Shown here one piece after another: positions 7,880 to 43,092 of a stretch of 59,951 nucleotides of DNA. Position 1 is the stretch's first letter, and every line of letters begins with the position of its first letter. The notes beneath the pieces are model-generated. The model was given only the letters and a program-made list of their open reading frames with translations, ran no database searches and was not told the DNA's origin. A program made the position numbers and the translations under genes. Origin of the DNA: Escherichia coli (GTDB lineage: Bacteria; Pseudomonadota; Gammaproteobacteria; Enterobacterales; Enterobacteriaceae); assembly GCF_003334335.1 (NCBI RefSeq), contig NZ_QOWQ01000031.1; one strand, 5' to 3'.

Positions 7880-9241
<1,362 letters not shown>

Positions 9242-9380
9242 AACGTGAGGAAATACCTGGATTTTTCCTGGTTATTTTGCCGCAGGTCAGCGTATCGTGA
9301 ACATCTTTTCCAGTGTTCAGTAGGGTGCCTTGCACGGTAATTATGTCACTGGTTATTAACCAATTTTTCCTGGGGGATAA

Positions 9381-10520
9381 ATGAGCGCGGGAAGCCCAAA
9401 ATTCACCGTTCGCCGCATTGCGGCTTTGTCACTGGTTTCGCTATGGCTGGCAGGCTGTTCTGACACTTCAAATCCACCGGCACCGGTCAGCTCCGTTAAT
9501 GGCAATGCGCCTGCAAATACTAATTCTGGTATGTTGATTACGCCGCCGCCGAAAATGGGGACGACGTCTACAGCGCAGCAACCGCAAATTCAGCCGGTAC
9601 AGCAGCCACAAATTCAGGCTACTCAACAACCGCAAATCCAGCCAGTGCAGCCAGTAGCTCAGCAGCCGGTACAGATGGAAAACGGACGCATCGTCTATAA
9701 CCGTCAGTATGGGAACATTCCGAAAGGCAGTTATAGCGGCAGTACCTATACCGTGAAAAAAGGCGACACACTTTTCTATATCGCCTGGATTACTGGCAAC
9801 GATTTCCGTGACCTTGCTCAGCGCAACAATATTCAGGCACCATACGCGCTGAACGTTGGTCAGACCTTGCAGGTGGGTAATGCTTCCGGTACGCCAATCA
9901 CTGGCGGAAATGCCATTACCCAGGCCGACGCAGCAGAGCAAGGAGTTGTGATCAAGCCTGCACAAAATTCCACCGTTGCTGTTGCGTCGCAACCGACAAT
10001 TACGTATTCTGAATCTTCGGGTGAACAGAGTGCTAACAAAATGTTGCCGAACAACAAGCCAGCTGCGACCACGGTCACAGCGCCTGTAACGGTACCAACA
10101 GCAAGCACAACCGAGCCAACTGTCAGCAGTACATCAACCAGTACGCCTATCTCCACCTGGCGCTGGCCGACTGAGGGCAAAGTGATCGAAACCTTTGGCG
10201 CTTCTGAGGGGGGCAACAAGGGGATTGATATCGCAGGCAGCAAAGGACAGGCAATTATCGCGACCGCAGATGGCCGCGTTGTTTATGCTGGTAACGCGCT
10301 GCGCGGCTACGGTAATCTGATTATCATCAAACATAATGATGATTACCTGAGTGCCTACGCCCATAACGACACAATGCTGGTCCGGGAACAACAAGAAGTG
10401 AAGGCGGGGCAAAAAATAGCAACCATGGGTAGCACCGGAACCAGTTCAACACGCTTGCATTTTGAAATTCGTTACAAGGGGAAATCCGTAAACCCGCTGC
10501 GTTATTTGCCGCAGCGATAA
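9381..10520 (+). CDS. nlpD: Lipoprotein NlpD (LysM domain plus degenerate M23 peptidase domain)
   Basis: 379-aa ORF with lipoprotein signal (LAGCS), Q/P-rich repeats and a C-terminal M23-like domain. The main rpoS promoter is known to lie inside this gene; not mapped here. Confidence 0.9.
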
Positions 10521-10582
10521 ATCGGCGGAACCAGGCTTTTGCTTGAATGTTCCGTCAAGGGATCACGGGTAGGAGCCACCTT

Positions 10583-11598
10583 ATGAGTCAGAATACGCTG
10601 AAAGTTCATGATTTAAATGAAGATGCGGAATTTGATGAGAACGGAGTTGAGGTTTTTGACGAAAAGGCCTTAGTAGAAGAGGAACCCAGTGATAACGATT
10701 TGGCCGAAGAGGAACTGTTATCGCAGGGAGCCACACAGCGTGTGTTGGACGCGACTCAGCTTTACCTTGGTGAGATTGGTTATTCACCACTGTTAACGGC
10801 CGAAGAAGAAGTTTATTTTGCGCGTCGCGCACTGCGTGGAGATGTCGCCTCTCGCCGCCGGATGATCGAGAGTAACTTGCGTCTGGTGGTAAAAATTGCC
10901 CGCCGTTATGGCAATCGTGGTCTGGCGTTGCTGGACCTTATCGAAGAGGGCAACCTGGGGCTGATCCGCGCGGTAGAGAAGTTTGACCCGGAACGTGGTT
11001 TCCGCTTCTCAACATACGCAACCTGGTGGATTCGCCAGACGATTGAACGGGCGATTATGAACCAAACCCGTACTATTCGTTTGCCGATTCACATCGTAAA
11101 GGAGCTGAACGTTTACCTGCGAACCGCACGTGAGTTTACCTGCGAACCGCACGTGAGTTGTCCCATAAGCTGGACCATGAACCAAGTGCGGAAGAGATCG
11201 CAGAGCAACTGGATAAGCCAGTTGATGACGTCAGCCGTATGCTTCGTCTTAACGAGCGCATTACCTCGGTAGACACCCCGCTGGGTGGTGATTCCGAAAA
11301 AGCGTTGCTGGACATCCTGGCCGATGAAAAAGAGAACGGTCCGGAAGATACCACGCAAGATGACGATATGAAGCAGAGCATCGTCAAATGGCTGTTCGAG
11401 CTGAACGCCAAACAGCGTGAAGTGCTGGCACGTCGATTCGGTTTGCTGGGGTACGAAGCGGCAACACTGGAAGATGTAGGTCGTGAAATTGGCCTCACCC
11501 GTGAACGTGTTCGCCAGATTCAGGTTGAAGGCCTGCGCCGTTTGCGTGAAATCCTGCAAACGCAGGGGCTGAATATCGAAGCGCTGTTCCGCGAGTAA
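10583..11598 (+). pseudogene. rpoS: rpoS (sigma-S) disrupted by a 23-bp tandem duplication causing a frameshift
   Basis: ATG at 10583 after an AGGAG RBS. ORF1 (to 11272) carries sigma regions 1.2-2 and then 45 out-of-frame residues. ORF2 (11158..11598) carries regions 3.2-4 in a different frame. The span is 1016 bp, i.e. 993 + 23. Confidence 0.85.
11112..11157 (+). repeat. Perfect 23-bp tandem duplication (TTTACCTGCGAACCGCACGTGAG x2) inside rpoS
   Basis: Copies at 11112-11134 and 11135-11157, flanked by a GTT microhomology. Confidence 0.9.
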
Positions 11599-11615
11599 GT
11601 AAGCATCTGTCAGAA

Positions 11616-11646
11616 AGGCCAGTCTCAAGCGAGGCTGGCCTTTTCT
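11616..11646 (+). terminator. Rho-independent terminator downstream of rpoS
   Basis: GC-rich hairpin (AGGCCAG...CTGGCCT) followed by TTTTCT. Confidence 0.6.
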
Positions 11647-11659
11647 GTGCACAATAAAA

Positions 11660-11687
11660 GGTCCGATGCCCATCGGACCTTTTTATT
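11660..11687. terminator. Bidirectional hairpin terminator between convergent rpoS and ygbN
   Basis: GGTCCGATG-CCC-ATCGGACC stem flanked by an A-run upstream and a T-run downstream. Confidence 0.6.
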
Positions 11688-11691
11688 AAGG

Positions 11692-13056
11692 TCAAATTAC
11701 CGCCCATACGCACCAGGTAATTAAGAATCCGGTAAAACCGAGAATGGTCGTTAACACTGTCCAGGTTTTCAGACCGTCTGCTACCGATAACCCCAGATAT
11801 TTGGTCACAATCCAGAACCCTGAGTCATTAATATGTGACGCACCAAGCCCACCAAAGCAGGCTGCCAGCGTCACCAATACGCACTGAATCGGATTCAATC
11901 CCATCACCGCTTCTGAGAGTAACCCGCCGGTTGTCAGTATTGCTACGGTTGCTGACCCCTGCGATGCACGCAGCGCCAGTGAAATAATAAATGCGGCTGG
12001 TAACAGAGGCAGGTCAATCATTTGTAGCATGTTGGCAAGGGCTTTGCCGACGCCCGATTCCACCAGCACTTTGCCAAATACCCCTCCAGCACCAGTAACC
12101 AAAATCACTACCGCCGCAGTAGGAAGCGCTGAGCCCATAATGTCGCTGGTGTGTTGTAAGCTCCAGCCGCGACGTAAAGCCAATAACCAGAATGCCAGCA
12201 CCAGCGCAATCATTAGAGCTACCATTGGTGAGCCGATCAGCTGTAGCGTACCAAGCAGGGGATGCGAAGGCGGCATCAGTGTTGCGGAAACCGTACCCGC
12301 CATGATAATCGCGATAGGAATAACAATTAGCGAGGTGACCAGCGCGACGCCCGGTGGATTTATTTTATCGCTTAATTTTGTCGCGCCTTCCTCACTGGCC
12401 GGAGCCAGTTGCATCTGTTCCAGTACTTCTACTGACATCGCATATTGGCGCTTATTGATTATTTTCGCTGCAAAGTAGCCAACAACCCCTACGGGAATAG
12501 AAATCGCAATACCGATGATGGTTAGCCAGCCGATGTCTGCGTGGAGTAACCCCGCTGCGGCGACAGGGCCTGGATGCGGCGGTACCGCCACGTGAACAGT
12601 GAGCATGATCCCAGCGACAGGCAGGCCAAATTTGAGTGGCGATATTTTGGCAACCTTGGCAAAACCGTAAATGATTGGCGCAAGAATAATAAAGCCGACA
12701 TCAAAGAAGACGGGAATACCGAGGAAGAACGCTGCCAGAGTCAGCGCAGCGATAGTTCGTTTGTCACCTAACTTGCGACTGAAATAATTAGCCAGTGACT
12801 CTGCACCACCAGAGTGTTCGATCATACGCCCCAGCATAGCGCCCAGACCAATAATAATAGTGACGGAACCAAGCACACCGCCCATCCCGGCGATCATCAC
12901 TTTACCCACTTCGCCCGCCGGTATACCCGCCGCAAGTGCGACTAACAGGCTGACGAGGAGCAGAGCAACGAATGGTTGTACCTTTGCCTTGATGGCCAGC
13001 AGCAACAGCATGATTACGCCAGTTAACGCAATGCATAACAATGTAATTGTGGACAT
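11692..13056 (-). CDS. ygbN: GntP-family acid-sugar:H+ symporter
   Basis: 454-aa polytopic membrane ORF; last gene of the ygbJKLMN cluster. Confidence 0.85.
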   Translation of the reverse strand: MSTITLLCIALTGVIMLLLLAIKAKVQPFVALLLVSLLVALAAGIPAGEVGKVMIAGMGGVLGSVTIIIGLGAMLGRMIEHSGGAESLANYFSRKLGDKRTIAALTLAAFFLGIPVFFDVGFIILAPIIYGFAKVAKISPLKFGLPVAGIMLTVHVAVPPHPGPVAAAGLLHADIGWLTIIGIAISIPVGVVGYFAAKIINKRQYAMSVEVLEQMQLAPASEEGATKLSDKINPPGVALVTSLIVIPIAIIMAGTVSATLMPPSHPLLGTLQLIGSPMVALMIALVLAFWLLALRRGWSLQHTSDIMGSALPTAAVVILVTGAGGVFGKVLVESGVGKALANMLQMIDLPLLPAAFIISLALRASQGSATVAILTTGGLLSEAVMGLNPIQCVLVTLAACFGGLGASHINDSGFWIVTKYLGLSVADGLKTWTVLTTILGFTGFLITWCVWAVI

Positions 13057-13144
13057 GGGAAACCCTGTCTGAAAGTTATAGTTAACCTACCCCATCCGTA
13101 GATGGGGGGATGTATGGGTACGTTGTAATTAGGGATTTAACGAA

Positions 13145-13921
13145 TTAGCGCCAGGCGTCAAACCAGCCAAGCCCTTCTTCGGTGAGGCCACGAGGTTTAT
13201 ATTCACAACCGATCCAGCCCTGATATCCCACCTCATCGAACAGGCGGAACAGCCACGGATAGTTGATTTCTCCATCGTCCGGTTCATGTCGATCAGGTAG
13301 TCCGGCAATTTGTACGTGCGCATATTTCCCGGCGTAGTCGCGGATTAAATGCGTCAGGTTGCCATCTACTTTTTGCGCATGAAAAGTATCTAGTTGAATA
13401 AACACGTTATCTCGCGCAACTTCTTCAACAATAGCCAGTGCCTGATACTGGCTGGAGAAGAGATAATGAGGCTTAACGCCGGGGCTGAGTGCTTCAACTA
13501 ATATTCGCTTGCCGTGTGGCGCAAAGCGGTCGGCAGCGTAGCGGAGATTATCGATAAATACTGCCCGGTACCGTTCAGCATCTTCGCCAGCGGGCACGAC
13601 GCCTGCCATCACATGGACTTGTTCACAATTGAGCGCCAATGCATATTCCAGTGCCAGGTCGATGTCTGCGTGTGCTTCGTGCTCACGTCCGGGAAGGGCG
13701 GATAATCCCCATTCCCCCGCATTAATATCTCCGGGAGCGGTATTGAACAGCGCCAGTGTCAGATGGTTTTGCTCCAGTTGCTTTTGGATTTGCAGGGTGG
13801 AGTAGTCATAGGGAAACAGAAATTCCACAGCATCGAACCCGGCTTTTCGCGCTGCGGCGAAGCGTTCAATAAAAGGCACTTCGGTGAACATCATGGATAA
13901 ATTAGCTGCAAAACGAGGCAT
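13145..13921 (-). CDS. ygbM: 2-oxo-tetronate isomerase (hydroxypyruvate-isomerase-like TIM barrel; OtnI)
   Basis: 258-aa ORF; xylose-isomerase-like fold family; conserved synteny. Confidence 0.8.
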
Positions 13922-13925
13922 TGCA

Positions 13926-14564
13926 TTAACTCCTTAATTCCGCAATTTCACCTGCGGTCAGATAACGGATCGGGCGGTCACCGAGAATAAAAATCAGCTT
14001 TGCCGTTTCCTCCAGCTCTTCCATATTGTTGGCGGCTTCTTGCAGGCTTTCACCGCAAACCACTGGGCCATGATTTGCCAGTAAAAAAGCCTGATTGTCT
14101 GCTGCCAGTTCCGCCAGATCCTGTGCGATGCGTTTATCGCCCGGTCGGTAATAAGGCACCAGCGGGACATTTCCCATCCGCATCACCACGTATGGTGTGA
14201 ACGGACGAATAACGTTGCTGCTGTCCAGCCCTTGCAGGCAGGAAAGCGCCGTCGACCATGTGCTGTGCAAATGCACCACCGCTTTACAACGCGGATTGTT
14301 GCGATACAGCGCCAGATGAAAGAGCACCTCTTTCGAGGGTTTGTCACCACTTAACCATTCGCCATCCGCGGCGACTTTGGAAAGCCGCTGCGGATCGAGA
14401 TTGCCCAGGCATGAACCTGTCGGTGTCGCCAGTAAATTCCCGTCAGGTAAAAGCAGCGACAGATTGCCAGCCGAACCGGTTGCATAGCCGCGCTGAAAGA
14501 ATGAACTGGCAATCCGCGTCATCTCCTCTCGCAAAGACTGCTCTACTTTTGCGAAATCGCTCAT
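13926..14564 (-). CDS. ygbL: 3-oxo-tetronate 4-phosphate decarboxylase (class II aldolase/adducin family; OtnC)
   Basis: 212-aa ORF; class II aldolase family. Confidence 0.8.
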
Positions 14565-15823
14565 GATAAAAACTCTCTTTGGGCTCGTGAAAAAAAGGCG
14601 TCATCACCGAAGTTGCCAGATTTAAGGGCGAGTGAGACAGGCTTATCCAGTGCGTTTACCCACGGCACGCCGGGGGAAATGGTTGGGCCAATATGAAACC
14701 CTTTTATTCCCAGGCTCTGTGTGACTACGCCGGAGGTCTCACCGCCTGCGACAATAAAGCGTGTCACGCCTTCCGCTGCTAACCGCGCCGCTAGTTGAGA
14801 AAACAGTGTTTCTACTGCCTGACTGGCTTTTTGTGCACCGTATTGCTGTTGAATTGCTGCCAATGCGTCAGTGCTGGCGGTGGCAAAAACCAGTGGAGCA
14901 AGTACACTTTCCTGGCCCAGAACCCACTCTGCCAGTTCGTGTGCATAAGCGGCCAGAGTTTCAATTGAGAGGCAGCGTGCCACATCAACTTCACGGGCTG
15001 GTGCAATTTGACGGTAATGTGCTACCTGGCGGTTGGTCATTTGAGAGCATGAACCGGAGAGCACTACGCCGCGCCCAGCGAGCGGACGCCCTGCTTTGCG
15101 AGCCTGGTTACCGTTTTCTTGCGCCCACTGCCGGGCCAGGCCAATCGCCAGACCAGAACCGCCCGTTACCAGTGGGGCATCGCGCAAGGCTTCTCCCTGA
15201 ATTTCCAGATGGTGTTCGGTCAGCGCATCAAGCACCGCGTAGCGGTAGCCCTCTTGCTGTAAGCGAGCCAGCTCTTGACGAACGGCATCCACACCTTGTT
15301 CGAAAACATGTGCCGAAACGACGCCGCAGCGCCCTGTGGATTGCGCTTCAACCAGACGGGGAAGATAGCTGTCGGTCATGGGATTTACCGGGTGATGGCG
15401 CATCCCGGATTCGGCCAGCAGTTGATTCATTACGAACAAATACCCCTGATAAACCGTACGTCCGTTGACCGGCAGGGCCGGAGAGAAGACCGTAAACGGC
15501 GTGTCGAGAGCATCCATTAAGGCATCGGTAACCGGGCCAATATTACCTTTCGCCGTACTGTCGAAAGTAGAGCAGTATTTGAAATAGATCTGTTTGCAAC
15601 CTTGCTGTTGCAACCAGCTCAGAGCCGCCAGCGATTGCTGTGTGGCTTCAACCACTGGACAGGAGCGCGTTTTCAGGCTGATCACCAGTGCGTCGATTGC
15701 TTCCGGCATTTTACCTGTTGGAACACCGTTAATTTGTACCGTTGGTAGACCGTTTTCCACCAGAAAACTGGCGATATCCGTCGCGCCGGTAAAATCATCG
15801 GCGATAACGCCAATCTTGATCAT
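14561..15823 (-). CDS. ygbK: 3-oxo-tetronate kinase (DUF1537 four-carbon acid-sugar kinase family; OtnK)
   Basis: 420-aa ORF starting MIKIGVIADDFTGATD; overlaps ygbL and ygbJ by 4 bp each. Confidence 0.8.
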   Translation of the reverse strand: MIKIGVIADDFTGATDIASFLVENGLPTVQINGVPTGKMPEAIDALVISLKTRSCPVVEATQQSLAALSWLQQQGCKQIYFKYCSTFDSTAKGNIGPVTDALMDALDTPFTVFSPALPVNGRTVYQGYLFVMNQLLAESGMRHHPVNPMTDSYLPRLVEAQSTGRCGVVSAHVFEQGVDAVRQELARLQQEGYRYAVLDALTEHHLEIQGEALRDAPLVTGGSGLAIGLARQWAQENGNQARKAGRPLAGRGVVLSGSCSQMTNRQVAHYRQIAPAREVDVARCLSIETLAAYAHELAEWVLGQESVLAPLVFATASTDALAAIQQQYGAQKASQAVETLFSQLAARLAAEGVTRFIVAGGETSGVVTQSLGIKGFHIGPTISPGVPWVNALDKPVSLALKSGNFGDDAFFSRAQREFLS

Positions 15824-16728
15824 GATTTCGCTCCCGGTAGAGTGATGCCAGAGAAAATCTTGATAACTGCGCTATCGTCTTCTTTCCCGTAACCCGCGTT
15901 ACTGGCGCTGGTGAACATATTCAATGCTGTTGAGGCCAATGGCAGCGGGAAGTGCAGGGCTTTGGCTGTATCGGCAACCAGACCAAGATCCTTAACAAAA
16001 ATATCGACGGCTGAATGCGGGGTGTAATCGCCATCCACCACATGACGCATCCGGTTTTCGAACATCCAGGAATTTCCGGCGGCATTGGTCACGACGTCAT
16101 ACATCACATCCAGCGGGATCCCCGCACGGGCTGCAAGTGCCATCGCTTCGGCTCCGGCAGCAATATGTACGCCCGCTAACAACTGGTGAATAATTTTTAC
16201 GGTCGAACCTAGTCCCGGTTCTGCACCTATGCGATAAACTTTTCCGGCAACGGCTTCCAGCACGGGTGCCAGTCGTTCAAAGGCAATATCGCTACCGGAG
16301 GCCATGATAGTCATTTCACCGTTAGCGGCTTTTACTGCACCACCAGAAACTGGCGCATCCAGCATTTCCAGATCGAATCCAGCCAGAGCGGTAGCAATTT
16401 CTTGCGCATCAGCACTAGCGATAGTGGAAGAAACCATTACTGCCGTACCGGGTTTCAGATGTTGTGCAACGCCTGTTTCACCAAACAGCACCTGTTTAAC
16501 CTGGGCCGCATTGACCACCAGCACCAGCAGTGCGTCCAGTTTTTCGGCAAACGTCGCGGCGTTATCAGAAACCCCGCAAGCACCTGCCTCTTTCAACGTA
16601 GCGCAGGCATTGCTGTTCAGGTCTGCGCCCCAGGTAGAAAGACCTGCGCGGACACATGACAGTGCTGCTCCCATTCCCATTGACCCTAAGCCAACGATAC
16701 CGACATGAAACTCAGATCCCGTTTTCAT
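15820..16728 (-). CDS. ygbJ: L-threonate dehydrogenase (3-hydroxyisobutyrate dehydrogenase family; LtnD)
   Basis: 302-aa ORF with N-terminal Rossmann motif GIVGLGSMG. Confidence 0.8.
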   Translation of the reverse strand: MKTGSEFHVGIVGLGSMGMGAALSCVRAGLSTWGADLNSNACATLKEAGACGVSDNAATFAEKLDALLVLVVNAAQVKQVLFGETGVAQHLKPGTAVMVSSTIASADAQEIATALAGFDLEMLDAPVSGGAVKAANGEMTIMASGSDIAFERLAPVLEAVAGKVYRIGAEPGLGSTVKIIHQLLAGVHIAAGAEAMALAARAGIPLDVMYDVVTNAAGNSWMFENRMRHVVDGDYTPHSAVDIFVKDLGLVADTAKALHFPLPLASTALNMFTSASNAGYGKEDDSAVIKIFSGITLPGAKS

Positions 16729-16893
16729 CTGCTCTCCTTGTTAATTTAAGTGATATTTTGTTTGATATTGTGAATATAAGCGCTGGAAGATAACGATATG
16801 GTGATCTGATTCACATAAATTAACATTGTGTGTTATTTTATGTGAACTAAGCGTTAGTTGCGCCGCGCACGTTTCGCAGGCAAATAGCGTAGA

Positions 16894-17691
16894 ATGTCAG
16901 CAGGACAAAGGAAGGAGCAAAAGTTGATACCCGTAGAGCGTCGCCAAATCATCCTTGAGATGGTAGCTGAAAAAGGCATTGTCAGTATTGCTGAACTAAC
17001 GGACAGAATGAATGTGTCACATATGACCATTCGTCGGGATTTACAAAAACTGGAGCAGCAGGGAGCCGTTGTGCTGGTGTCCGGAGGCGTCCAGTCTCCG
17101 GGACGCGTGGCGCATGAACCTTCTCATCAGGTAAAAACTGCGCTGGCAATGACGCAAAAAGCGGCTATTGGCAAGCTGGCGGCAAGTCTTGTTCAGCCGG
17201 GAAGTTGTATCTATCTGGATGCGGGAACGACCACGTTAGCGATAGCACAGCATCTGATTCACATGGAGTCACTGACTGTGGTCACAAACGATTTCGTTAT
17301 TGCGGACTACTTGCTCGACAACAGTAATTGCACAATTATTCACACTGGCGGTGCAGTGTGTCGGGAAAACCGTTCCTGTGTCGGGGAAGCCGCTGCGACC
17401 ATGCTGCGCAGCCTGATGATTGATCAGGCTTTTATTTCTGCATCGTCATGGAGTGTGCGGGGGATTTCTACGCCAGCGGAAGATAAAGTCACGGTGAAAC
17501 GGGCGATTGCCAGTGCCAGCCGCCAGCGAGTTTTGGTCTGTGATGCGACGAAATATGGTCAGGTGGCGACATGGCTGGCGTTACCATTAAGCGAGTTTGA
17601 TCAGATTATTACAGACGACGGTTTGCCGGAGAGTGCCAGTCGCGCGCTGGTGAAGCAGGATCTCTCTTTGCTGGTAGCGAAAAATGAATAA
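16894..17691 (+). CDS. ygbI: DeoR-family transcriptional regulator
   Basis: N-terminal HTH and C-terminal DeoR sugar-binding domain; divergent from ygbJ. The true start may be the TTG at 16924 (255 aa). Confidence 0.8.
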   Translation: MSAGQRKEQKLIPVERRQIILEMVAEKGIVSIAELTDRMNVSHMTIRRDLQKLEQQGAVVLVSGGVQSPGRVAHEPSHQVKTALAMTQKAAIGKLAASLVQPGSCIYLDAGTTTLAIAQHLIHMESLTVVTNDFVIADYLLDNSNCTIIHTGGAVCRENRSCVGEAAATMLRSLMIDQAFISASSWSVRGISTPAEDKVTVKRAIASASRQRVLVCDATKYGQVATWLALPLSEFDQIITDDGLPESASRALVKQDLSLLVAKNE

Positions 17692-17741
17692 TGGCCTGCA
17701 ATAACACCGGGTTACTCATGCTTCACAGAAGAAGCATGAGA

Positions 17742-18398
17742 CTACTTTATTTTATAAAATGACAGCCGCCCGCTGTTCGGCGATCCGGTATCAATATAAA
17801 TCTGGTTAGCGAACGTCTGAATGTTATCAAACATCATATGTCCAAATATAAAATAATCAGCGCCGTTTATTTGTTGTAACTCGCCATTAAGCGATTTCTG
17901 CACACGATCAACAGGCCAGAGTAATTCGCTCTCCGCTATTTCTTTACCAAAGAGATATTCACTCCCCGGATAATCTGCATGTGCGATGGCATATTTTATG
18001 TTGTCGTTAGTGATTTCAATAATATGTGGAAGGTGATGGAATTTCAGCAACAGATCTATTGCCTCTTGTTGCTCTGAATCATTTAAATCGAAAAACCAGT
18101 CACCACCGCTGGCAAGCCACATATTGCCATCGCCAGTTTCGAATGCCTCAAGCGCCATCGCTTCGTGGTTGCCTTTAACCGACGTAAACCAGGGTTGGTT
18201 TAGCAGGCGCAGGACGTCAAGACTCTCCGGTCCACGATCAATATTATCGCCGACAGAAATAAGTAAGTCGATTTCGGGGAAAAAAGAGAGTTGATGTAAG
18301 CGGGATTGTAATAACTGATATTCACCATGAATATCACCAACGACCCATATATGGCGATAGTGATGGGCATTGATTTTTTGATAGCGTGTAGATGGCAT
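17742..18398 (-). CDS. pphB: Serine/threonine protein phosphatase 2 (metallophosphatase)
   Basis: 218-aa ORF with GDIHGE motif. Confidence 0.85.
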   Translation of the reverse strand: MPSTRYQKINAHHYRHIWVVGDIHGEYQLLQSRLHQLSFFPEIDLLISVGDNIDRGPESLDVLRLLNQPWFTSVKGNHEAMALEAFETGDGNMWLASGGDWFFDLNDSEQQEAIDLLLKFHHLPHIIEITNDNIKYAIAHADYPGSEYLFGKEIAESELLWPVDRVQKSLNGELQQINGADYFIFGHMMFDNIQTFANQIYIDTGSPNSGRLSFYKIK

Positions 18399-18503
18399 GG
18401 TTTTACCCTGTAAAATAAGCTTTCCTATTATACAGGGTGTTTTTATTTTATTCGTCAGTTGTCGTTAATATTCCCGATAGCAAAAGACTATCGGGAATTG
18501 TTA

Positions 18504-21065
18504 TTACACCAGGCTCTTCAAGCGATAAATCCACTCCAGCGCCTGACGCGGGGTGAGTGAATCCGGATCAAGATTTTCCAGAGCTTCGACCGCAGGCGAA
18601 GTTTCTTCTGGTACTGACAGCAAAGACATTTGCGTACCATCCACTTGCGTAGCGGCGGCGTTCGGCGAAATGCTTTCCAGCTCACGCAGCTTTTGCCGTG
18701 CGCGCTTAATAACCTCTTTTGGCACGCCTGCCAGAGCTGCAACCGCCAGGCCGTAGCTTTTGCTCGCCGCGCCATCCTGCACGCTGTGCATAAAGGCAAT
18801 GGTGTCGCCGTGCTCCAGTGCATCGAGATGCACGTTAGCGACGCCTTCCATTTTCTCCGGTAACTGGGTCAGCTCGAAATAGTGGGTAGCAAATAACGTC
18901 AATGCCTTAATCTTATTCGCCAGATTTTCCGCGCACGCCCACGCCAGCGACAGACCATCGTAGGTGGACGTTCCACGCCCGATCTCATCCATTAACACCA
19001 GACTGTATTCGGTGGCGTTATGTAAAATATTGGCGGTTTCAGTCATCTCCACCATAAAGGTTGAGCGCCCGGACGCCAGGTCATCTGCCGCGCCTACGCG
19101 GGTAAAGATGCGATCGATAGGTCCAATCTCGACTTTTTGTGCCGGTACATAGCTGCCGATGTAGGCCATCAGCGCAATCAGTGCGGTCTGGCGCATATAG
19201 GTACTTTTACCGCCCATGTTCGGACCGGTGATGATCAACATGCGGCGCTGCGGCGACAGATTCAGCGGGTTGGCGATAAATGGCTCATTCAGTACTTGTT
19301 CAACTACCGGATGGCGACCTTCGGTAATGCGAATGCCCGGTTTATCAATGAAGGTCGGGCAGGTGTAGTTCAGGGTATAGGCCCGTTCCGCCAGGTTAAC
19401 CAGCACGTCGAGTTCCGCCAGCGCGCTCGCGCTCTGTTGCAACGCTTCCAGATGCGGCAACAGCAGGTCGAACAGCTCTTCATAAAGCTGTTTTTCCAGT
19501 GCCAGTGCTTTGCCTTTTGAGGTGAGAACTTTATCTTCGTACTCTTTTAGCTCTGGAATGATGTAGCGCTCGGCGTTTTTCAGCGTCTGGCGACGCATGT
19601 AGTTGATGGGTGCCAGATGGCTTTGCCCACGGCTGATTTGAATGTAGTAGCCGTGCACCGCATTAAAGCCAACTTTCAGCGTGTCCAGGCCGGTACGTTC
19701 ACGCTCGCGGACTTCCAGACGCTCCAGATAATCGGTCGCGCCGTCAGCCAGCGCGCGCCACTCATCCAGCTCTTCGTTATAGCCCGATGCGATAACACCA
19801 CCGTCGCGTACCAGCACCGGCGGTGTGTCGATGATTGCTCGCTCCAGCAGATCGCGCAGCTCGGCAAACTCGCCCATCTTCTCACGTAGCGCCTGTACCG
19901 GTGCACTATCGACAGTTTCTAACTGCGCACGCAGCTCCGGCAGTTGCTGGAAAGCGTGGCGCATACGGGCCAGATCGCGTGGGCGAGCAGTTCGTAAAGC
20001 CAGACGTGCCAGAATACGTTCCAGGTCGCCGACCTGACGCAGTACCGGCTGTAGCCCGGCGGTGAAATCCTGCAATGCGCCAATAGTTTGCTGGCGCTCA
20101 AGCAACACGCGGGTATCGCGCACTGGCATATGCAGCCAGCGTTTCAGCATACGGCTGCCCATCGGCGTGACGGTGCAGTCGAGCACAGAAGCCAGCGTAT
20201 TTTCCGCACCACCCGCCAGGTTCTGGGTGATTTCCAGATTACGACGCGTCGCGGCATCCATAATGATGCTGTCCTGCTCACGTTCCATGGTGATGGAACG
20301 AATATGCGGCAGAGTCGTACGTTGGGTATCTTTCGCATACTGCAACAGACAACCGGCAGCACAAAGTCCGCGCGGCGCGTTCTCGACGCCAAAACCGACC
20401 AGATCGCGGGTCCCAAATTGCAGATTCAACTGCTGGCGCGCGGTGTCGATTTCAAACTCCCACAGCGGGCGACGGCGCAGGCCGCGACGGCCTTCAATTA
20501 ACGACATTTCAGCAAAATCTTCTGCATACAGCAGTTCCGCAGGATTAGTGCGTTGCAGTTCTGCCGCCATCGTTTCGCGGTCAGCCGGTTCGCTCAGGCG
20601 AAAACGCCCGGAACTGATATCCAGCGTCGCGTAGCCGAAACCTTTGCTGTCCTGCCAGATAGCCGCCAGCAGGTTGTCCTGACGCTCCTGCAACAGGGCT
20701 TCATCGCTGATGGTGCCTGGCGTAACGATACGTACAACTTTGCGCTCAACCGGACCTTTGCTGGTCGCCGGATCGCCAATTTGTTCGCAGATGGCAACGG
20801 ACTCTCCCTGATTCACCAGTTTGGCGAGATAGTTTTCCACCGCATGGTAGGGAATCCCCGCCATCGGGATCGGCTCTCCCGCCGAAGCACCGCGTTTGGT
20901 CAGTGAAATATCCAGCAGTTGCGACGCGCGTTTTGCGTCGTCATAAAACAGTTCATAAAAATCACCCATCCGGTAAAACAGCAGGATCTCGGGATGCTGG
21001 GCTTTCAGCCTGAGATACTGCTGCATCATGGGCGTATGGGCGTCGAAATTTTCTATTGCACTCAT
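18504..21065 (-). CDS. mutS: DNA mismatch repair protein MutS
   Basis: 853-aa ORF with Walker [14 protein letters not shown]; appears intact. Confidence 0.95.
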
Positions 21066-21311
21066 GGGGTTATGTCCGGTTCCCTGATATTAAATGGGGT
21101 GTGATGGTTTTTATTTTCGTTGTAATCACATAAGGCGCACATGATACCGGAGTTAATCATTTCAGGGGAAGAAGCGAACGGCGAGTTCTTGATGCTGGTT
21201 CCGGGAAAGATGCTGTTTTGCAGCTTTTGCGTGATGCTTATGAAGCAAGTACGCAAAATTGTATCGGTTGGCTAACCCTTCTTCTTTGGAGTCATAGTGC
21301 CCTTTAAGATT

Positions 21312-21334
21312 AAGATGTAATATAAATACATCTT
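21312..21334. promoter_or_regulatory. NsrR-type operator (AAGATGTAATATAAATACATCTT) upstream of ygbA
   Basis: Inverted repeat with AAGATG/CATCTT arms, 18 bp upstream of the ygbA ATG; ygbA is a known NsrR target. Confidence 0.6.
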
Positions 21335-21351
21335 AATGAGGTGGAGGCAGC

Positions 21352-21705
21352 ATGTCCGGCAAGCGTATCTCTCGTGAAAAACTGACGATTAAAAAAATGA
21401 TCGATCTTTATCAAGCGAAATGCCCGCAGGCGTCAGCGGAGCCGGAGCATTACGAGGCGTTGTTTGTTTACGCGCAAAAGCGGCTGGATAAATGTGTGTT
21501 CGGCGAAGAGAAACCAGCCTGTAAGCAGTGTCCGGTGCACTGTTACCAGCCTGCAAAGCGTGAAGAGATGAAACAGATTATGCGTTGGGCCGGGCCGAGA
21601 ATGCTGTGGCGTCATCCGATCTTAACCGTGCGTCATCTCATCGATGACAAGCGTCCGGTGCCAGAACTGCCGGAAAAATATCGTCCGAAAAAACCTCATG
21701 AATAG
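21352..21705 (+). CDS. ygbA: NsrR-regulated protein YgbA (function unknown)
   Basis: 117-aa ORF with cysteine-rich region; conserved position between mutS and fhlA. Confidence 0.8.
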   Translation: MSGKRISREKLTIKKMIDLYQAKCPQASAEPEHYEALFVYAQKRLDKCVFGEEKPACKQCPVHCYQPAKREEMKQIMRWAGPRMLWRHPILTVRHLIDDKRPVPELPEKYRPKKPHE

Positions 21706-21708
21706 TAT

Positions 21709-21732
21709 GCCGGACAGGCAGATCTGTCCGGC
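21709..21732. terminator. Hairpin between convergent ygbA and fhlA
   Basis: GCCGGACAG-GCAGAT-CTGTCCGGC, a 9-bp perfect stem in a 36-bp intergenic gap; weak flanking T/A runs. Confidence 0.45.
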
Positions 21733-21741
21733 AATTTGCAG

Positions 21742-23820
21742 TTAAATCAATGCCGATTTATCAATTCCCAGCCGCTTCATCCGTGACAGCAGGGTCGTGC
21801 GTTTCAGCCCCAGACGTTGCGCAGCGCCTTTAGGCCCGGCAACCACGCCGTTGGTTTCTTTCAGCACGCGCACAATCAACTGATATTCATCTTCGCCCTC
21901 CAGGGCGACAACCGTTGCGGCAGGCGGCGTTTCAGGTTCCGGTAAAACAATATCTGGCAATGACAGCTGCAGCACGTTACCGCGTGTTAGCAATACCGCG
22001 CGCTCAATGACGTTTTCCAGTTCGCGTACGTTACCCGGCCACTCCATGTTGCTCAAGGTGCGCAGCGTCTCGGCAGGAATGCTGTCGATATTGCGCCCCA
22101 GACGACGGGCAATTTTGAAGGTAAAGGCTTTCGCCAGCAGCGGAATATCTTCCGGACGCTCGCGTAGTGGCGGCAGGTGAATCGGGAATACGTTCAGGCG
22201 GTAATAGAGATCGCTACGGAACTCACGGTCGGCGACCATTTTTTTCAGATCGCGGTTAGTCGCGGCGATTAGACGCACGTCCGTCTGAATGATTTTGTTG
22301 CTGCCGAGACGTTCAAACTCCTGTTCCTGCAATACACGCAGCAACTTCGGCTGTAACTCCAGTGGCATATCGCCCACTTCGTCGAGGAACAGGGAGCTTT
22401 TATCCGCCAGTTCAAAACGACCGATACGCTGGGCGCTGGCACCGGTAAAAGCCCCACGCTCATGACCAAACAGATCGCTTTCCAGCAATCCGGCAGGCAT
22501 CGCCGCGCAGTTCATTTTGACCATGCGGCGATTATTACGCCCACTGAGATTATGGATCGCACGGGCAATCAGCTCTTTACCCGTGCCAGTTTCACCGAGG
22601 ATCAGCACGGTACTGTCACTTTGCGCCACCATTTCAACTTGTTTAAGCACGCTGTACATGGCTTCGCTGCGGCCAATAATCTCGCCAAATTCACTATCAA
22701 CATTGTTGAGCTGCTCGGTCAGGGCGAGGTTTTCATCAACCAGCCGTTCTTTCAGACGATGGATTTCCTGATAGGCGAGGGCGTTATCGACAGCGATTGC
22801 CACACGTTCGGCAATCTGGCGCAGTAAATTCAGATTGGTAGTGGTAAACACTTTCTCTTCGCATTGCGCCAGTTTCAGCACGCCCAGCATGGTGTCGCCA
22901 GACATCAGCGGTAACAGGCACAAGGTTTGAATCTGGTTGCCCCAGGTGTCGAACAACATGCGTTCATAGGGGGCTAAATCGTCCCGCTCGTGGAGATTGA
23001 TCAGCAGCATCTCTTTACTTTTGAACACGCGTTCGGTGAGGGTTCCGGCTTCATCGACTTCGCTCTGTTCGTGGGCGGGATGCTGTTTATCAAGATAGTG
23101 AGTGGAGTAGATGTTGAGTTTGTTTTTACGGTGGCTGCGTAAGACGATACTGATATCGTCAATGTCGAAATAGTAATGGATTTCTTTGGCGACTTCGCTG
23201 ACCAGTTCGTCCATATCCAGGCGGGAAAGCACCGCGTTGGTGATGGCGACCAGGATGCGGAAGTTATCGCGTTCCCGGCATAACAACTCATAGTCGACAT
23301 TGTTAACGACGCGGCTCTGGATTTGTTCGGTGACGACAGAAACGATCTGCGTAAATGTTTGCAGACGATTGAACTCTTTTTCGCTCCAGGGGCGATCGTC
23401 ATAACGAATAAATTCACAGCCACCAAAAATATGCCCTTCCGCCGCCAGTGGCATCAGGCAATAGTGACCAAATTTTGGGTATAGCCCACCTGCGTCCAGC
23501 TGCGGCCAGGTTTCACAAAATTCTTCGTAACTGCAATGCAGCGTATCAGGGCGCGACAAAATGCTGCGTACCGGACCGTGTGCCAGAACAGTTTCGTCTT
23601 CATATTTAATGGGGGTGTCTTTTTCACGCGACGCGTAATAAGACGCACGTTGAGTCTGCGCTTGCCACAACACAATAGCCGCGTTGTCGGCGAGCGCAGA
23701 ACGCTTTACCAGTTGCGAAAGAGCCTCACACAGCGAGGCCAGATCGGGCTGCTGCAATAGTGTCCGAGTGATGTCGAACAACCCTTGTTGTCCGAGATCA
23801 CTCATCGGTGTATATGACAT
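21742..23820 (-). CDS. fhlA: Formate hydrogenlyase transcriptional activator (sigma54-dependent)
   Basis: Start trimmed to MSYTPMSDLG (692 aa). GAF domains, AAA+ GETGTGKE and GAFTGA motifs, C-terminal HTH. Confidence 0.9.
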   Translation of the reverse strand: MSYTPMSDLGQQGLFDITRTLLQQPDLASLCEALSQLVKRSALADNAAIVLWQAQTQRASYYASREKDTPIKYEDETVLAHGPVRSILSRPDTLHCSYEEFCETWPQLDAGGLYPKFGHYCLMPLAAEGHIFGGCEFIRYDDRPWSEKEFNRLQTFTQIVSVVTEQIQSRVVNNVDYELLCRERDNFRILVAITNAVLSRLDMDELVSEVAKEIHYYFDIDDISIVLRSHRKNKLNIYSTHYLDKQHPAHEQSEVDEAGTLTERVFKSKEMLLINLHERDDLAPYERMLFDTWGNQIQTLCLLPLMSGDTMLGVLKLAQCEEKVFTTTNLNLLRQIAERVAIAVDNALAYQEIHRLKERLVDENLALTEQLNNVDSEFGEIIGRSEAMYSVLKQVEMVAQSDSTVLILGETGTGKELIARAIHNLSGRNNRRMVKMNCAAMPAGLLESDLFGHERGAFTGASAQRIGRFELADKSSLFLDEVGDMPLELQPKLLRVLQEQEFERLGSNKIIQTDVRLIAATNRDLKKMVADREFRSDLYYRLNVFPIHLPPLRERPEDIPLLAKAFTFKIARRLGRNIDSIPAETLRTLSNMEWPGNVRELENVIERAVLLTRGNVLQLSLPDIVLPEPETPPAATVVALEGEDEYQLIVRVLKETNGVVAGPKGAAQRLGLKRTTLLSRMKRLGIDKSALI

Positions 23821-43009: not shown

Positions 43010-43092
<83 letters not shown>

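Follow-up and report, generated by a model that had tools for sequence, protein, structure and literature searches.

The mutS-rpoS interval of the Escherichia coli contig analysed here (NZ_QOWQ01000031.1; a stretch of 59,951 nt, hereafter the window) holds seven open reading frames at positions 11692-18398, limits that coincide exactly with those of the original prediction (Table 1). pphB and ygbIJKLMN sit between mutS and rpoS in the K-12 order. Protein identities were established with NCBIfam equivalog models at their curated cut-offs. Each of the seven proteins (YgbN, YgbM, YgbL, YgbK, YgbJ, YgbI and PphB) is complete and exceeds its cut-off, and by these matches the gene assignments predicted from the sequence (LtnD, OtnK, OtnC, OtnI, a GntP-family transporter, a DeoR-type YgbI and pphB) are correct. 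YgbN is the presumed importer of acid sugars. YgbM also matches NF007441 (588 bits), a model oddly named 'HPr family phosphocarrier protein'. The start of ygbI is placed at the TTG at 16924, with GGAAGGAG ahead of it; an in-frame ATG at 16894 would give a product of 265 aa. The NF040890 profile begins at residue 11 of this longer frame, and the 255-aa form is that of the K-12 annotation. An Rfam scan of positions 9000-22000 detected no RNA families at gathering thresholds.

Table 1. Features of the mutS-rpoS interval and its flanks in the window, with profile matches of the encoded proteins.
Feature	Position	Strand	Description	Profile match
rpoS (flank)	10583-11598	+	frame disrupted	
rpoS-ygbN junction	11599-11691		93 nt; rpoS-proximal polymorphic site	
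rpoS terminator hairpin	11617-11640		T-run 11641-11644, then 8-nt filler 11645-11652	
hairpin flanked by A and T runs	11660-11679		likely ygbN or bidirectional terminator	
ygbN	11692-13056	-	454 aa; GntP-family transporter	NF007332, 824.5 bits (cut-off 524), profile 1-454 of 454
ygbM / otnI	13145-13921	-	258 aa; 2-oxo-tetronate isomerase	NF043033, 396 bits (cut-off 325)
ygbL / otnC	13926-14564	-	212 aa	NF043034, 334.8 bits (cut-off 250)
ygbK / otnK	14561-15823	-	420 aa; 3-oxo-tetronate kinase	NF043035, 598 bits (cut-off 350)
ygbJ / ltnD	15820-16728	-	302 aa; L-threonate dehydrogenase	NF043037, 473.7 bits (cut-off 350)
divergent ygbJ-ygbI spacer	16729-16923		195 bp; candidate YgbI operator	
ygbI	16924-17691	+	255 aa; DeoR-type repressor	NF040890, 481.9 bits (cut-off 400)
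hairpin between convergent ygbI and pphB	17715-17740		10-pair stem; likely bidirectional terminator	
pphB (PrpB)	17742-18398	-	218 aa; protein Ser/Thr phosphatase 2	NF007425, 467.2 bits (cut-off 332), residues 1-218 of 218
mutS (flank)	18504-21065	-	853 aa	TIGR01070, 1388 bits

The adjacent rpoS gene carries a 23-bp tandem duplication (copies at 11114-11136 and 11137-11159) that puts everything downstream of codon 185 out of frame. The gene product has 185 native residues and then 44 read in the wrong frame, codon 230 being a stop, and the NCBIfam RpoS match ends at profile position 187 of 329; with one copy taken out, the 330-aa RpoS is recovered. The predicted rpoS lesion is therefore real, as seen in the alignment to MG1655, in the sequence and in its translation. 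The duplication occurs in no complete E. coli genome, and the best matches differ from the window by that gap alone. A second difference from K-12 lies at rpoS codon 33, which is GAG in the window and CAG in K-12.

Reading frame of otnK and the ygbJ-N operon

The genes from ygbJ to ygbN follow each other closely on the reverse strand. ygbJ and ygbK overlap by 4 bp (ATGA), as do ygbK and ygbL (also ATGA), and ygbL and ygbM are separated by 4 nt and ygbM and ygbN by 88 nt. The cluster had been described as one of tightly coupled, overlapping frames, which holds for ygbJ/ygbK and ygbK/ygbL but not for ygbL/ygbM and ygbM/ygbN, leaving overlaps at two of the four junctions. Given the two 4-bp overlaps, and K-12 RNA-seq data in which a transcript crosses from ygbK to ygbL (PMC4168707), we infer that ygbJ to ygbN form a single transcription unit. 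The 88-nt spacer between ygbM and ygbN could harbour a separate promoter.

The window encodes an OtnK with both of its Pfam domains, SBD_N at residues 4-228 and NBD_C at 253-411, and the protein aligns end to end with the structures 3dqq, 1yzy and 5dmh. The gene differs from its K-12 counterpart in the length of a C run at 14672-14676, which has five residues in the window and four in K-12. With the extra C at 14676, the 420-aa frame of the window overlaps ygbL. The lineage-specific 1-bp deletion in K-12, seen in 370 K-12 strain genomes, yields a product of 388 aa followed by a 91-nt gap; this protein departs from the OtnK of the window after residue 384 and is missing the C-terminal 36 residues, among them the final part of the nucleotide-binding domain. 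The division of the genes into 'ygbJK' and 'ygbLM' operons is therefore false, being a consequence of the deletion. No description of the K-12 ygbK frameshift was found in the literature searched.

The ygbJ-ygbI control region

The divergent spacer between ygbJ and ygbI contains three copies of the 15-nt motif TGTTAWTTTAWGTGA, at 16739-16753 (+), 16811-16825 (-) and 16831-16845 (+), the last two of which make up a 16-nt inverted repeat. The whole 60 kb contain no match besides these three, the expected number being 0.37; the motif was defined on the very sequence that was then scanned for it. Conservation of the motif extends to K-12, CI5 and Nissle. The orthologous spacer of Klebsiella has two degenerate copies, a modest result given that 6 of 200 shuffled sequences also reach two.

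YgbI of the window is a full-length DeoR-type protein identical to that of K-12, where it gives a single ChIP-exo peak, located between ygbI and ygbJ, and where deletion of ygbI derepresses ygbJKLMN (PMC8464067). Mutations in ygbI likewise increase ygbJKLMN expression (PMC6452873). The three motif copies are put forward as a candidate, and probable, YgbI operator.

Consensus scans for promoters and terminators were used just to point at hairpins. They yielded 10 promoter matches against 7.3±2.6 in shuffled sequences and 9 terminator matches against 7.4±3.2, neither above chance. The hairpin between ygbI and pphB may act as a terminator of both genes, a reading kept conditional because the terminator scan as a whole does not rise above chance.

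Interval type across E. coli

The mutS-rpoS interval is a known hotspot of recombination and insertion, and four patterns of the o454-nlpD / mutS-rpoS region, I to IV, have been distinguished, with pattern II corresponding to K-12 and ECOR group A (Ewers 2014; PMC4209514). The predicted value of the interval for strain typing is thus borne out, having already been published in the form of these patterns (PMC4209514). Among 5426 complete genomes of E. coli, the ygb block, scored as present when at least 80% of it is matched, occurs in 4576 (84%) and is missing from some 15-16%; the K-12-type junction of rpoS and ygbN occurs in 1950 (~36%), and the kpd insert in 2418 (~45%). Three other configurations were read directly from CI5, O145:H28 and Nissle 1917. 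The expectation of a polymorphic interval is confirmed: aligned to E. coli genomes the segment is not invariant, and the variation among the 5426 genomes disposes of the objection that it might be the same in all E. coli. With these counts, the earlier PCR-derived frequencies of the types are brought up to date. Earlier work on the same patterns is reportedly that of Herbelin 2000, Culham & Wood 2000 and LeClerc 1999.

In the window, ygbN adjoins rpoS without intervening genes. The 2.9-kb insert of MarR and kpdBCD genes is absent, and a blastn search of the entire window with the CI5 insert returned only a 27-nt chance match at 43063. The B2-specific genes for an MBL-fold hydrolase (c3302/o347) and a flavodoxin are likewise absent from the window, and matches to the Nissle insert are limited to the duplicated part of ygbN and the 46 rpoS-proximal nucleotides. 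At the junction, homology to insert-bearing strains stops at 11644 and restarts at 11653, where CI5 holds 2895 bp; no flanking direct repeats that would account for the 2.9-kb indel at 11644/11653 were found. This layout fits pattern II, in which ygbN is present with rpoS alone separating it from nlpD. The layout is distinct from pattern I (O157/O145 type), which has the kpd insert and lacks ygbI-N, from pattern III (B2), with its MBL-fold hydrolase, flavodoxin and partial ygbN duplication, and from pattern IV (CI5/EPEC type), in which the 2895-bp MarR and kpdBCD insert accompanies the ygb block. What marks the K-12 type is the lack of an rpoS-proximal insert, and the typing value of the interval resides in what sits, or does not sit, beside rpoS, which in the window is nothing.

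The O145:H28 genome has a gap spanning 11645 to 17742, so that ygbI-N is gone and pphB is kept; we read this as a loss of ygbI-N. Since pphB is retained there, and since 5406 of the 5426 genomes match some part of the block, pphB is effectively a core gene, near-universal in E. coli rather than part of the variable content. These observations bear on the notion that the K-12 lineage is defined by the pphB-ygbIJKLMN block as a lineage-specific island gained by horizontal transfer. The hotspot nature of the interval, the low G+C of pphB (0.42-0.46 over 17500-18499, below its surroundings) and the genomes without ygbI-N would suit such an origin. The block nevertheless occupies one and the same site in 84% of the complete genomes, which cover all types examined, CI5 and the B2 strain Nissle among them, the G+C of ygbI-N is genome-typical at ~0.52, neither mobility genes nor flanking repeats are seen, and the K-12 type is set apart by a missing insert. 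Together with the retention of pphB in O145:H28, this makes acquisition as a K-12 island very improbable.

Function of the cluster and comparison with known systems

We consider it highly probable (about 85%) that the window carries the K-12/ECOR-A pattern II interval with three independent units, namely the ygbJKLM(N) operon, ygbI and pphB. The DeoR-type YgbI would bind the 195-bp spacer common to both genes, probably through the three TGTTAWTTTAWGTGA copies, and would repress the whole ygbJ-N operon until a pathway inducer appears; pphB, convergent with ygbI, is an unrelated Ser/Thr phosphatase gene. The operon has the components of the four-step LtnD/OtnI/OtnK/OtnC pathway (Zhang 2016, PNAS, as summarised in PMC12540250), the chemistry of which has been established in other bacteria for threonate (PMC12540250). 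Judged by its gene content, the strain is predicted to be able to catabolise L-threonate. DenD extends the pathway to D-erythronate. The block contains no second dehydrogenase, and L-threonate is therefore the better-supported substrate. The MG1655 annotation still calls the enzymes 'putative', and the phenotypes described for E. coli in the literature consulted relate to tartrate rather than threonate.

A different native role, in the catabolism of L- or meso-tartrate with YgbI as the tartrate-pathway repressor, has been proposed for K-12. With ygbI deleted, MG1655 is able to grow on 20 mM L-tartrate, and the wild type is not (PMC8464067); two independent lines evolved on meso-tartrate gained ygbI mutations and overexpressed ygbJKLMN (PMC6452873). 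Growth, however, appears only once the repressor is lost, so that tartrate does not act as an inducer; those who ran the evolution study themselves describe the activity as promiscuous (PMC6452873), and each of the four enzymes reaches equivalog level for its counterpart in the L-threonate pathway. Because K-12 otnK is truncated, moreover, the tartrate experiments are silent on the intact pathway. We regard tartrate as an unlikely native substrate. Less plausible still is a cluster that has no function in this strain, being cryptic or in decay as in K-12. The frameshift in K-12 otnK, the inactivation of the adjacent rpoS in the window and the repression of the operon in wild-type K-12 under laboratory conditions (PMC8464067) would be in keeping with decay, but the seven frames of the window are full length against their profiles, otnK is intact through NBD_C, and the whole 6707-nt segment is 100% identical in many E. 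coli chromosomes from independent isolates.

With an operon for L-threonate use in a pattern II interval as the favoured reading, the locus is an ordinary one, its interval type, pathway and regulator all having been published. Tentatively, and with rather less than even odds, we suggest that L-threonate catabolism is broken in the K-12 reference, intact here and in ~92% of the E. coli that bear the cluster, and missing in the O157 type. Were this true, strains would vary in threonate use in step with their mutS-rpoS pattern, and the K-12 view of the cluster (separate 'ygbJK' and 'ygbLM' operons, an action of YgbI on ygbLM and ygbN that is only indirect, and tartrate as substrate) would be an artefact of the reference strain. 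The otnK allele of the window is the species-typical one. Experiments on the ygb operon should not rely on K-12, since its otnK is frameshifted.

In MG1655 (b2734-b2740) the seven genes, their order and orientation, and the rpoS/ygbN junction all match those of the window; the 15-kb fhlA-umpG region around the segment is 99.68% identical to the window, and the YgbL, YgbI and MutS proteins are identical. Six amino-acid substitutions are spread across YgbN, YgbM and YgbJ, and one falls in PphB. The designation 'K-12-type' is accordingly apt for the gene content and not for the alleles, as the 420-aa rather than 388-aa otnK and the GAG rather than CAG codon in rpoS attest. In relation to the four-step L-threonate pathway, the cluster of the window contains all four enzyme families, LtnD, OtnI, OtnK and OtnC, together with a transporter and a repressor; OtnC, a protein of the class II aldolase fold, is a member of this four-step cluster. 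An orthologous divergent pair of ltnD and a DeoR-type regulator, with ~69% DNA identity, lies in the chromosomal ltnD-ygbI-blaSHV region of Klebsiella, and the spacer of that pair has repeated motifs similar to those of the window. The copies mobilised by IS26 onto plasmids are only an IS26-flanked fragment linked to blaSHV-12, and not a functional catabolic cluster.

Gene content of the mutS-rpoS interval

The original prediction placed a K-12-type pphB plus ygbIJKLMN module in the mutS-rpoS interval, and the reading frames, protein profiles and gene order agree with this content. The predicted limits, 11692-18398, coincide exactly with the outermost coordinates in the table of open reading frames, and every product was matched over its full length by an NCBIfam equivalog model, above the curated cut-off. 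The segment is flanked by mutS (18504-21065) on one side and nlpD-rpoS on the other. Its gene order is common to the window and K-12 MG1655, and across the 15-kb fhlA-umpG region of MG1655 the two sequences are collinear, with 99.68% identity. Reading-frame limits, equivalog matches and collinearity thus confirm the segment, which is beyond chance.

Genes of the segment (open reading frame table) and their NCBIfam equivalog matches
Gene	Coordinates	Strand	Product	Score (bits)	Cut-off (bits)
ygbN	11692-13056	-	GntP-family transporter	824	
ygbM (otnI)	13145-13921	-	2-oxo-tetronate isomerase	396	325
ygbL (otnC)	13926-14564	-			
ygbK (otnK)	14561-15823	-	3-oxo-tetronate kinase	598	350
ygbJ (ltnD)	15820-16728	-	L-threonate dehydrogenase	474	350
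ygbI	end 17691	+	repressor	482	400
pphB	17742-18398	-	PphB	467	332

The tight coupling by overlapping frames attributed to the cluster holds at ygbJ/ygbK and ygbK/ygbL, each with a 4-bp overlap (ATGA), and does not extend to ygbL/ygbM and ygbM/ygbN, which are spaced by 4 and 88 nt. The start of ygbI is most likely the TTG at 16924, with GGAAGGAG just upstream, because the K-12 annotation uses the same codon and the profile match opens at residue 11 of the longer reading frame. A hairpin lies between ygbI and pphB (17715-17740), and further hairpins are located 3' of rpoS and 3' of ygbN. The totals from promoter and terminator scans were not above chance, and Rfam returned no family match in window positions 9000-22000.

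Two peculiarities of individual genes were observed. In RefSeq, as in its best NCBIfam model (NF007441), YgbM bears the name 'HPr family phosphocarrier protein'. It is, however, an isomerase of the TIM-barrel type and also scores above the cut-off of the model for 2-oxo-tetronate isomerase; the HPr label therefore looks like a propagated annotation error. The G+C content around pphB, which we take to be a lambda-phosphatase-like gene, is 0.42-0.46 (17500-18499) against about 0.52 in the adjoining genes, and may reflect an older foreign origin.

Interval types and the rpoS lesion

Alignment to other genomes bears out the polymorphism ascribed to the interval. Only 1950 of the 5426 complete E. 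coli genomes match a 517-nt probe for the rpoS/ygbN junction without interruption; elsewhere the match ends at window position 11644, right behind the rpoS terminator's T-run. In 4576 complete genomes the coverage of the ygbN-pphB block reaches 80% or more, and the kpd insert, a 2.9-kb block between rpoS and ygbN, is present in 2418. In CI5 this insert measures 2895 bp and encodes a MarR/SlyA-like regulator and hydroxyarylic acid decarboxylase BCD. O145:H28 RM13514 carries the CI5-type insert and has pphB but no ygbI-N. In Nissle 1917 (B2), genes for an MBL-fold hydrolase and a flavodoxin are accompanied by a partial duplication of ygbN. Both the kpd and the B2-specific insert are absent from the window. 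Arithmetic estimates, as distinct from direct counts, give about 1950 genomes of the K-12 type, 1040 of the B2 type, 1580 with insert and ygb genes, and 840 with the insert and without ygb.

Several of the retrieved stretches display damaged genes. In the EHEC strain RM13514, an internal stop interrupts the gene for decarboxylase subunit C in the rpoS-proximal insert (13489-14916 of its stretch, L003). About 1 kb of the 3' part of ygbN is duplicated beside the B2-specific insert in Nissle 1917 (L006, 9657-15135), where RefSeq annotates both GntP-family (ygbN) features as incomplete pseudogenes, one also frameshifted, and rpoS as a frameshifted pseudogene. In E. coli 53_142304 a deletion of the whole interval fuses a 3'-truncated rpoS directly to a 3'-truncated mutS (L004, 7231-10396); both an RpoS-null state and a mismatch-repair mutator phenotype would be predicted for this strain.

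The rpoS lesion of the window is real: a 23-bp sequence, TACCTGCGAACCGCACGTGAGTT, stands twice in perfect tandem (11114-11136 and 11137-11159). The duplication shifts the frame after codon 185 and yields a product of 229 aa, composed of 185 native and 44 out-of-frame residues and devoid of regions 3 and 4. Removal of one copy restores the 330-aa RpoS. None of the complete E. coli genomes in the collection contains the duplication, many of the best matches being otherwise identical across 11.9 kb; it is therefore a marker private to the isolate and not of a lineage. Codon 33 of rpoS (10679) is GAG (Glu) in the window versus CAG (Gln) in MG1655, the known K-12-specific variation at this codon; on this evidence the strain is not K-12.

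The use of the interval in strain typing is already in print. Ewers 2014 (PMC4209514), citing Herbelin 2000, Culham & Wood 2000, LeClerc 1999 and Kotewicz 2003, sorted the interval types into patterns I-IV, with pattern II representing K-12/ECOR A, and put the classification forward as a typing tool. The original interpretation is thus supported, and concerns a well-described locus.

Substrate and regulation of the ygb operon

The published route leads from L-threonate through 2-oxo-tetronate, 3-oxo-tetronate and then 3-oxo-tetronate 4-phosphate to DHAP and CO2 (Zhang et al. 2016, as relayed in PMC12540250 and PMC12506659). Equivalog models would assign the E. coli ygb genes to this route by homology, which is established practice. 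The cluster contains a single dehydrogenase gene, scoring as LtnD, which makes L-threonate a better supported candidate substrate than D-erythronate. Tartrate is an unlikely native substrate of the operon: a K-12 ygbI deletion does grow on L-tartrate (PMC8464067), and ygbI mutations arose in meso-tartrate-evolved lines in a published evolution study, but both phenotypes were seen only after derepression and in a K-12 background with truncated otnK. We treat tartrate use as a side activity next to the L-threonate assignment.

The 195-nt ygbJ-ygbI spacer contains three copies of TGTTAWTTTAWGTGA, two of them arranged as a 16-nt inverted repeat. The 60-kb window has no other match at up to two mismatches, against 0.37 matches expected, a count made partly circular by deriving the motif from the same copies. 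The copies are kept in K-12, CI5 and Nissle, and the orthologous Klebsiella spacer has two degenerate copies, a number reached in 6 of 200 shuffles. In K-12, one YgbI ChIP-exo peak maps to this spacer, and deletion of ygbI derepresses ygbJKLMN (Gao et al. 2021, PMC8464067). Motif counts, conservation and the ChIP-exo peak therefore make TGTTAWTTTAWGTGA a reasonable candidate operator.

A Klebsiella-derived fragment orthologous to ygbJ-ygbI (ltnD and a DeoR regulator), about 69% identical to the window, was found on plasmid pKAM645_2 (L005, 3403-6209) and 1154 other plasmids, on many of which it adjoins blaSHV-12 between IS26 copies.

The otnK frameshift of K-12

Base by base, the window differs from MG1655 by 22 substitutions, the 23-bp insertion in rpoS and one extra C (14676). 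This C falls within a C5 run in ygbK (14672-14676, minus strand), where MG1655 has C4 (about 8482 of its stretch, L001). With one C fewer, the MG1655 YgbK leaves the frame past residue 384 and stops at 388, followed by an 'intergenic' gap of 91 nt to ygbL. The 420-aa YgbK of the window aligns along its entire length with homologs of solved structure, 3dqq (Salmonella), 1yzy and 5dmh, and has a complete NBD_C domain (253-411), the end of which is missing from the K-12 product. The exact K-12 allele occurs in 370 genomes, those listed being K-12 derivatives, and otnK is intact in about 4200. The tight ygbK/ygbL coupling is therefore the species norm, absent from K-12 itself.

No description of this frameshift was found in the literature searched. 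It is the sole point worth carrying on, as it bears on the annotation and testing of the operon. The frameshift explains both the division of the cluster into ygbJK and ygbLM in RegulonDB-type annotation and the K-12 transcript that crosses the ygbK-ygbL gap, given as 92 nt, in an RNA-seq study (PMC4168707).
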